Shown piece by piece: positions 12,574 to 12,659 of a DNA stretch of 64,000 nt. The DNA is from a virus, in IMG/VR virus record IMGVR_UViG_3300034196_000067, positions 108,796 to 172,795 of that record; one strand, 5' to 3'. The notes beneath the pieces were generated by a model. It saw only the letters and a program-made list of their open reading frames with translations. It had not been told where the DNA came from and did not search any database. Position 1 is the stretch's first letter; each line of letters starts with the position of its first letter. Both the position numbers and the translations under genes were made by a program.

Positions 12574-12659
12574 CGCGGGGTCGTCTAGCGGTCGAGGACA
12601 TCGGGCTCATAACCCGAAAGGCGCAAGCCTCATCGTGAGTTCAAATCTCACCCCCGCAA
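12574..12659 (+). tRNA. initiator tRNA-fMet(CAT) with a 17-nt GNRA-capped insertion in the variable region
   Basis: Acceptor CGCGGGG/CCCCGCA with C1.A72 and anticodon arm TCGGGCTCATAACCCGA (three G:C pairs) identical to E. coli tRNA-fMet. Between anticodon and T stems lies AAGGCGCAAGCCTCATC (AGGC-GCAA-GCCT hairpin). Confidence 0.75.

Follow-up and report, generated by a model that had tools for sequence, protein, structure and literature searches.

Can an initiator tRNA carry a variable arm of the class II type and, if so, what would the arm be good for? This question is raised by a tRNA gene in a 64,000-nucleotide (nt) stretch of viral DNA (positions 108,796 to 172,795 of IMG/VR record IMGVR_UViG_3300034196_000067), which was analysed as a whole and is referred to as the window. 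The gene has the anticodon CAU, the traits of an initiator tRNA (tRNA-fMet), and a hairpin in its variable region, to which an initial annotation, made from the sequence alone, had drawn attention. Initiator tRNAs are among the most conserved RNAs and are always drawn as class I molecules. A long-arm variant widens this known architecture, and a class II-like arm would have to be compatible with methionyl-tRNA synthetase (MetRS), formyltransferase, the initiation factors IF2 and IF3 and the ribosomal peptidyl (P) site. The window tRNA belongs to a widespread, phage-specific initiator variant that has apparently not been described so far. In the literature searched, in which the coverage of subscription journals is thin, natural initiator tRNAs with a long variable arm are not mentioned, but an earlier description is possible.

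Sequence, fold and identity of the window tRNA

ARAGORN, the check proposed in the initial annotation, calls a tRNA-Met(CAU) of 87 nt (12574-12660). The Rfam model RF00005 matches 12574-12659 with 55.1 bits (gathering score 29); all of model positions 1-71 are matched, and 13 nt (aggcgcaagccuc) are treated as an insertion in the variable region. The 5′ half of the gene can be parsed into CGCGGGG / UC / GUCU-AGCGGUCGA-GGAC / A / UCGGG-CUCAUAA-CCCGA and the 3′ half into A-AGGC-GCAA-GCCU-CAUC / GUGAG-UUCAAAU-CUCAC / CCCCGCA / A. CCA is absent from the gene, and CUUUU follows directly 3′ of the discriminator A73.

The variable region is composed of a single A (12618), the stem strand AGGC (12619-12622), the GNRA tetraloop GCAA (12623-12626), the stem strand GCCU (12627-12630) and CAUC (12631-12634). 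Folded alone, its hairpin has -5.7 kcal/mol, compared to -0.86 for shuffled sequences. The minimum free energy (MFE) fold of the complete tRNA (RNAfold, -34.3 kcal/mol, z = -3.2) is a cloverleaf plus the AGGC/GCCU hairpin. The perfect anticodon and T helices fix both ends of the region, and thus an alternative fold with a variable loop of 4-5 nt, named in the initial annotation as a potential pitfall, could be ruled out. The hairpin sits where nucleotide 45 is normally found, while nucleotides 44 and 46-48 are kept for the 26:44 and 15:48 contacts; G15 is free to pair with C48.

For direct comparison, metZ of E. coli K-12 was taken from NC_000913.3. As claimed initially, the acceptor stem (CGCGGGG/CCCCGCA, with C1xA72) and the anticodon arm (UCGGGCUCAUAACCCGA) are the same as in E. 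coli tRNA-fMet (metZ/W/V), and A73 and the T-loop UUCAAAU are also shared. The parse, the Rfam insertion and the MFE fold equally bear out that 17 nt with a 4-bp GNRA hairpin (AGGC-GCAA-GCCU) replace the 5-nt loop AGGUC of E. coli. The window tRNA further differs by the lack of G46 and of an encoded CCA and by a minor feature that had not been listed, namely U11:A24 instead of A11:U24 in the D-stem. A BLAST search of the window tRNA against E. coli genomes gave nothing significant, the shared segments being short.

All bacterial initiator sequence determinants are present. These are the anticodon CAU (12608-12610), the formylation determinants of the acceptor end (unpaired C1xA72 with G2:C71 and C3:G70), A73, the three consecutive G:C pairs which close the anticodon loop (29:41, 30:40, 31:39), and the T-loop UUCAAAU. 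The remaining two CAU tRNAs of the window (3389-3463 and 12888-12961) have fully paired acceptors and lack the three-G:C run, and therefore 12574-12659 is the sole initiator-type gene in the 64 kb. Judged by these sequence features, we are highly confident that the gene is genuinely of the initiator type. The arm is probably kept in the mature tRNA.

By the criterion of a variable region of more than 10 nt with a stem-loop, the window tRNA would count as a class II tRNA. Long arms are ascribed in reviews to the tRNAs for Leu, Ser and Tyr (PMC9976931). With the class II tRNAs (Leu, Ser, bacterial Tyr, Sec), to which descriptions of long arms have been confined (PMC9976931), it shares a stem-loop between the anticodon and T stems with few unpaired flanking nucleotides. 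The core of a class II tRNA has a 3-bp D-stem with a matching D-loop and tertiary arrangement. The core of the window tRNA, in contrast, is of class I, with a D-stem of 4 bp (G10-C25 to U13.G22) and with nucleotides 44 and 48 retained; its arm has only 4 bp, and its identity is that of a methionine initiator.

Long-arm initiators in phages and their rarity in cells

In order to find comparable genes, IMG/VR was scanned with the pattern GGGCTCATAACCC, 16-30 nt, GTTCRAAT, in which the CAU anticodon arm with its three G:C pairs is separated from the T-loop by more nucleotides than usual. At least 66 contigs matched; the census used exact-word patterns and thus undercounts, and IMG/VR contigs are predicted viruses. 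Strict parsing resulted in 49 distinct long-arm tRNAs with variable regions of 10-22 nt. Positions 1:72 form a true mismatch in 35 of these (19 U:U, 5 C:A, 4 C:U, 7 others) and A:U or U:A in 12, while G:C is found only in two Brevundimonas sequences. A73 is present in 38 of the 49, and the acceptor consensus is xGCGGGG. By these characteristics, the 49 genes are classified as initiator-type. The recurrence refutes the idea of a singular oddity, as comparable arms occur in many phage initiators. In nearly all long-arm loci (64 of 67), there is no second, normal-loop initiator-like gene within the available flank.

The frequency of the arm was estimated from the first 80 loci of a length-agnostic scan, the listing order of which is independent of loop length. 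Of these phage initiator-type loci, 63 have a normal loop, 9 are intermediate and 8 (10%) have a long arm. The long-arm share is 26% (7 of 27) for those among the 80 loci which hold at least five tRNAs. In normal phage initiators, the variable loop is AGGTC in 55 of 81 cases. Twenty other long-arm families were compared to GenBank phages and no match was found.

When the variable regions were folded alone, a hairpin of at least 3 bp formed in 33-35 of about 50 sequences. The arm stems have 3-6 bp, with 4-6 pair types per stem position. There are 25 tetraloops, 15 of them GNRA, with GAAA being the commonest. One unpaired nucleotide 5′ and three unpaired nucleotides 3′ of the stem are the modal flanks (1 + 4 in the window), and G46 is not conserved in the 3′ tails. 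To analyse base pairing, a covariance model (R1) was built from four gapless sequences. It aligns the arms on their loops and replaced a MAFFT alignment in which the arms were out of register. The window tRNA scores 77.3 bits with R1 (E ~4e-20), just below the seeds, L004 and L029. In the R1 alignment of 47 distinct long-arm rows, the five pairs of the variable-arm stem are paired in 87.5% of 184 cells, whereas permutation of partners gives 52.2 +/- 2.8% and none of 1000 permutations reaches the observed value. Double changes are seen in 67 cells of the stem, and 18 extra pair types occur; in the four canonical stems, the paired fraction is 95-99%. Because the R1 alignment is fitted to the structure, a stability test that is independent of the alignment was added. 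The summed MFE of the 49 variable regions is -136.9 kcal/mol, compared to -34.6 +/- 7.4 for shuffles (z = -13.9). The arm is a helix under selection for pairing.

The same long-gap pattern was applied to one genome per species from 185,579 bacterial and archaeal species. This resulted in 29 matches, only two of which (L080, L088) are genuine hairpin-arm initiators. Ten matches are artefacts caused by masked NN runs and a few are duplications. About seven are archaeal initiators with A1:U72 which carry inserts of 19-24 nt at the same site in the variable region. The archaeal inserts (L076, L078, L079, L075, L071, L091; Vulcanisaeta, Jordarchaeia, Thermoproteales, Wolframiiraptor) are probably small introns. 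Another seven (L072, L077, L089, L090, L093, L095, L098), from Acidobacteriota and other metagenome-assembled genomes (MAGs), are chimeric, with an exact initiator 5′ half and a divergent 3′ half (…CCCGC UGAGCGGGAUC GGUGG UUCAAAU CCCGC UUCGGCA). They look like att-like remnants of an element that has integrated into the tRNA-fMet gene. The two genuine cases are of the bacterial type, have U1:U72 and are on MAG contigs of 8.3 and 4.3 kb, labelled Thermoplasmata and Saccharibacteria. They may represent phage DNA that ended up in MAGs during binning, although the Saccharibacteria gene may also be truly cellular. With only two genuine cases among the matches from 185,579 cellular species, the long-arm initiator design is essentially phage-specific. 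Thus, the initial statement of a universal class I structure of initiators is correct for cells but not for phages, with their 49 distinct long-arm genes.

Among cultured phages, BLAST of the window tRNA gave weak matches in Brevundimonas jumbo phages. The 89-nt tRNA-Met of Brevundimonas phage Kikimora has the variable region A-AGGC-GAAA-GCCU-UCAU, so that its arm is one loop base off that of the window. Such matches cover the segment from the anticodon through the variable arm to the T-arm with 86% identity. A search with the Kikimora tRNA retrieved 33 records, all from Dolichocephalovirinae, including phiCbK, Rogue, Magneto, Karma and Swift. The long genes have 85-89 nt and are annotated as tRNA-Met only. 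Their arms covary across the subfamily (GGG-UUCGU-CCC, GGGA-CUAGC-UCCC, GGG-GAAA-CCC, AGGC-GAAA-GCCU). However, the long tRNA-Met of phiCbK-like phages has G1:C72, U or C as discriminator and an encoded CCA, none of which is found in the window initiator, and the anticodon stem of the phiCbK gene (UCGGC/GCCGA) lacks the three G:C pairs. These genes are therefore of the elongator type. The initiator-type tRNA that phiCbK-like phages have themselves (CGCGGGG...CCCCGCU) has a normal loop. A tRNA-Cys(GCA) of 87-89 nt, also with a variable-arm hairpin, is conserved beside the long tRNA-Met in the phiCbK-like phages of Caulobacter and Brevundimonas. It is annotated just as tRNA-Cys (L225 742-830(-), L226 1821-1907, L227 1789-1877(-), L001 246-332). 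The phiCbK genome paper counts the tRNAs and does not discuss their structure (PMC3556154). Long-arm tRNA-Met and tRNA-Cys genes already sit uncommented in the annotations of phiCbK and its relatives.

Long arms also occur on other class I tRNAs. According to ARAGORN calls, from which the lengths of other isotypes were taken without one-by-one inspection, this applies to 43 of 492 tRNAs (8.7%) in long-arm loci and to 9 of 409 (2.2%) in control loci. A weak BLAST match to the window tRNA is found in the 642-kb phage LR756502 (L223). This phage has three adjacent tRNA-Lys (87, 89 and 82 nt; 23662-23931) and a tRNA-Glu(UUC) of 86 nt (39162-39247), all with variable-arm hairpins. In five long-arm loci (L012, L030, L038, L044, L050), tRNA-Ile(TAT) has 87-96 nt, which may reflect either an arm or an intron.

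Open reading frames (ORFs) in the flanks of 67 long-arm and 120 control loci were clustered, and only a GIY-YIG-like homing endonuclease was enriched in the long-arm loci. No co-occurring partner protein other than homing endonucleases was found in the flanks of these 67 loci. The GIY-YIG-like ORFs are interspersed in tRNA arrays and occur in 15 long-arm loci (L004, L007, L008, L013, L017, L019, L030, L035, L038, L046, L047, L052, L057, L066, L068) compared to 5 of the 120 control loci.

What the arm may be for

We tentatively favour the reading that the window gene encodes a working phage initiator which keeps its arm, and that the arm tags it apart from the initiator of the host, most likely against tRNA nucleases. 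Host MetRS would charge the tRNA via its CAU anticodon, and host formyltransferase would act on its acceptor end, recognising the mismatched position 1:72 together with the pairs 2:71 and 3:70. The three G:C pairs would make it acceptable to the 30S P site and to IF3. The arm would point into the solvent, as in tRNA-Leu, -Ser and -Tyr. These tRNAs pass the ribosome normally despite their long arm, and thus a long arm is no bar to ribosome passage. Since the initiator determinants are present and a long arm is tolerated, the gene should work as an initiator with the arm retained. Engineered hairpin insertions in the variable arm can also stay compatible with translation (PMC7590224).

The acceptor end, the anticodon arm and the T-loop would be locked by function. 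With none of these parts open to change, the variable region would be the only site at which the phage copy can differ from that of the host. tRNA-fMet is a known target of VapC, its anticodon loop is not mutable by phages, and as a rule phages leave tRNA-fMet out of their genomes where it is a VapC target (PMC10264068). We propose that the arm acts as a shape tag through which the phage initiator escapes a tRNA-directed nuclease that removes its host counterpart. Both a VapC-like defence toxin of the host and a host-shutoff activity of the phage itself are conceivable as such a nuclease.

The elongators of the same array may reach the same end via altered anticodon loops. In six of the 42 tRNAs, position 33 is occupied by C and not by the near-universal U (His-atg, 2676-2746; Pro-ggg, 6121-6197; Ile-gat, 6900-6972; Ala-ggc, 10714-10788; Met-cat, 12888-12961; Val-cac, 12961-13036), whereas the anticodon loop of the initiator is unaltered. 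Additionally, tRNA-Asp (8645-8717) has U37 where a purine is usual. These C33 and U37 changes resemble the loop mutations which, according to a proposal by Van den Berg et al. (PMC10264068), let phage tRNAs escape anticodon nucleases. Nuclease-evading phage tRNAs include anticodon-loop variants in mycobacteriophages, the T5 tRNA-Lys (PARIS) and the T5 tRNA-Tyr (retron, PtuAB) (PMC10264068, PMC11464382, PMC11555353). In these systems, the phage copy of a host tRNA is altered and thereby withdrawn from a tRNA-targeting defence. The window, too, has altered loops (the C33 variants) and also repair enzymes. However, they change the anticodon loop or stem, while the window initiator has an intact anticodon arm with a helix added elsewhere, and here evasion is our interpretation. 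RtcB and RlaP of jumbo phages have been read as repair enzymes for nuclease-cut tRNA (Iyer et al., PMC7824862), and late in an infection host tRNAs may decay (Yang et al. 2021, as cited in PMC11025619).

The interpretation as a tag is supported by the recurrence of the arm, by the selection on the hairpin, by phage specificity, by its carrier usually being the sole initiator, and by a context of tRNA replacement and repair. Among the functions suggested in the initial annotation, a putative anti-determinant fits this genomic context best.

Several observations weigh against a tag that averts nucleases. We know of no nuclease which discriminates by the variable region of tRNA-fMet, and the cleavage site of VapC is in the anticodon loop. 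About 40 ORFs in the window, which is 64 kb of a much larger genome, were scanned with Pfam and PHROGs and did not include a tRNA nuclease. The nearest relative at the protein level, LR756500, has an initiator-like tRNA with a normal loop. Finally, arms are also found on class I tRNAs which are free to mutate their loops (the 43 of 492 described above, the Cys and Met tRNAs of phiCbK-like phages, and the Lys and Glu tRNAs of LR756502), and therefore the variable region being the only free site cannot explain everything.

A more far-reaching version, which we regard as doubtful, is that the arm is a self/non-self mark that defines a private initiator class of phages, one that keeps initiating while the host initiator is destroyed or blocked, be it by the immunity of the host or by the phage. 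Roughly one in ten initiators encoded by phages would belong to this class, and about one in four where the gene is part of a tRNA array. If this is true, translation initiation is a front line of the arms race between phage and host, involving an unrecognised reading of tRNA shape. Long-arm initiators provide a handle on the question why large phages carry their own tRNAs, including one with functional elements that cannot mutate. For synthetic biology, they also offer a natural scaffold from which orthogonal or tagged initiators can be made.

It is rather unlikely that the arm does not discriminate at all and merely stiffens the tRNA core, e.g. to make up for lost G46/m7G46 contacts or for poor modification of phage tRNAs that are expressed in massive amounts, or that it is a nearly neutral expansion which is tolerated in certain lineages of phages. 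Neutrality is at odds with the strong selection for pairing, the many compensatory changes and the conservation throughout the Dolichocephalovirinae, while a general stabilising benefit leaves the near-absence from cells unexplained. Also, only the initiator has an arm in the window. This explanation would nevertheless account for long arms being a tendency of the lineage (8.7% versus 2.2% of other class I tRNAs), for the lack of G46 conservation in the 3′ tails, and for the prevalence of GNRA and other stable tetraloops, which stability alone would predict.

Alternatively, the arm could be a positive handle. It would be bound by a protein of the phage, e.g. a chaperone, a modification enzyme or a protein similar to an initiation factor, which would direct the initiator to phage-specific translation or protect it. 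Variable-arm hairpins are used as protein handles by seryl-tRNA synthetase (SerRS) and in engineered aptamer-tagged tRNAs (PMC7590224), and huge phages have many translation-related genes (PMC7162821). Stem and loop sequences vary widely by lineage, however, so that the reader would have to recognise shape only. The flanks of the 67 long-arm loci do not provide a candidate, given that just the homing endonuclease is enriched, and no gene for MetRS, formyltransferase or an initiation factor is present among the scanned ORFs of the window. We thus consider a handle unlikely.

The initial annotation had also suggested a mini-intron. A hairpin of 12-13 nt would be excised and the halves rejoined, e.g. 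by the phage RtcB, which would restore a loop of 4-5 nt. This would leave ACAUC, which has normal length, and the typical 1 + 3 flanks found elsewhere would leave 4 nt. The RtcB gene is 21 kb away from the window tRNA, and the archaeal initiators have inserts, probably introns, at the same site. On inspection, however, AGGC/GCCU pairs only with itself and an exon-intron bulge-helix-bulge (BHB) cannot be drawn. The insert is also shorter than the full BHB motif with its two 3-nt bulges flanking a 4-bp helix, and the stem is selected for pairing. Archaeal introns at non-canonical positions resemble the arm in adding sequence to the variable region of initiators, but they have 19-24 nt, are in initiators with A1:U72 and depend on a splicing endonuclease, whereas the window has a self-paired hairpin of 12-13 nt in an initiator of the bacterial type. 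A splicing endonuclease was not found among the about 40 scanned ORFs of the 64-kb window, and many long-arm loci are on small contigs where splicing machinery is not evident. To our knowledge, protein-dependent tRNA splicing does not occur in bacteria or phages, and the combination of RtcB and RlaP in jumbo phages is taken to serve in repair, as mentioned above. A mini-intron is thus quite improbable.

We give hardly any credence to an identity switch, where the arm would recruit SerRS or leucyl-tRNA synthetase (LeuRS) and AUG or start codons would be read as another amino acid. Ser/Leu identity was rejected outright because the full set of methionine and initiator determinants is kept. A73 and the unpaired 1:72 do not agree with SerRS, which uses G73 and a paired acceptor, and the arm has just 3-6 bp. 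A73 is the major leucine determinant in E. coli, but E. coli LeuRS needs A15:U48 where the window tRNA has G15:C48 (PMC9976931). A precedent is provided by nev-tRNAs and allo-tRNAs, where class II arms on anticodons other than those for Leu and Ser recode codons (PMC3333845, PMC5389517). These share with the window tRNA a long arm despite an anticodon not belonging to Leu, Ser or Tyr; they have Leu or Ser identity, however, in contrast to the full Met/initiator identity and the canonical 7/5 acceptor and T branch of the window tRNA.

Artefacts were indeed encountered, as 10 of the 29 matches in the genome collection were due to masked bases and some others were duplications or chimeric att-like copies. 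For the window gene, an assembly or sequencing artefact or a dead gene is highly improbable, and an artefact was rejected outright, considering the five intact helices (55 bits with Rfam, 77 bits with R1), the insert being a clean hairpin without duplication, and the independent recurrence of the architecture in many phages, with 49 distinct genes and finished genomes of cultured phages.

The tRNA array and neighbouring genes

The features of the window tRNA and of its surroundings are listed in Table 1. The window (GC content 57-60%) is a fragment of a huge phage without a close relative in GenBank phages, IMG/VR or the metagenomes of JGI. Near-identical DNA was not found among GenBank phages. 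A search of the JGI metagenomes for exact-arm relatives with CTCATAACCCNNAAGGCNNNNGCCT gave four matches, all of them chance matches inside coding sequence. When syntenic relatives were searched via the AAA ATPase, a single distant contig was obtained, which stops short of the relevant region; none was obtained via RtcB. The fetched part of LR756501 contains no tRNAs.

Table 1 Features of the window tRNA and of its genomic surroundings. Positions refer to the window.
Feature	Position	Strand	Evidence
Initiator-type tRNA(CAU), complete, 86 nt including discriminator A73	12574..12659	+	ARAGORN, Rfam, covariance model R1
Acceptor stem, 5′ strand CGCGGGG	12574..12580	+	Identical to E. coli metZ
D-arm GUCU-AGCGGUCGA-GGAC	12583..12599	+	Sequence parse, MFE fold
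Anticodon arm UCGGG-CUCAUAA-CCCGA	12601..12617	+	Identical to E. coli metZ
Variable region, 17 nt	12618..12634	+	Rfam insertion, hairpin energy, MFE fold, Kikimora arm
T-arm GUGAG-UUCAAAU-CUCAC	12635..12651	+	T-loop identical to E. coli metZ
Acceptor stem, 3′ strand CCCCGCA, and A73	12652..12659	+	Identical to E. coli metZ
Array of 42 tRNA genes among small ORFs and HNH endonucleases	790..18143	+	ARAGORN
RlaP RNA-repair nucleotidyltransferase, inside tRNA array	4506..5471	+	Pfam PF10127, E = 3.6e-14
RtcB RNA ligase (RNA/tRNA repair)	33339..34520	+	Pfam PF01139, E = 4.7e-122
tmRNA gene	37132..37510	+	Rfam RF00023, 114 bits

The array represents a near-complete tRNA set, in which the initiator is the only class I tRNA with a long arm according to ARAGORN. 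Further genes of the window code for an Rv2179c-like exoribonuclease, AAA ATPases, HNH endonucleases and a GH108 endolysin. The transfer-messenger RNA (tmRNA) gene is detected by Rfam, while ARAGORN does not report it for the same window.

Directly upstream of RtcB, there is a gene for a vault-like protein of 851 aa (30668-33223) with major-vault-protein shoulder and repeat domains. Its matches in the phage collection are all from uncultured phages of 462-735 kb, with about 40% identity. Together with RtcB, it looks like an RNA-repair module of huge phages.

Two further observations concern individual tRNAs. The tRNA-His at 2676-2746 has the anticodon ATG and thus an unusual A34, and a normal tRNA-His(GTG) is also present (6989-7063). 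Amber-suppressor-like tRNAs with the anticodon CTA, labelled Pyl by ARAGORN, were encountered in L224 (8888-8958(-)), and five more are found in long-arm loci.

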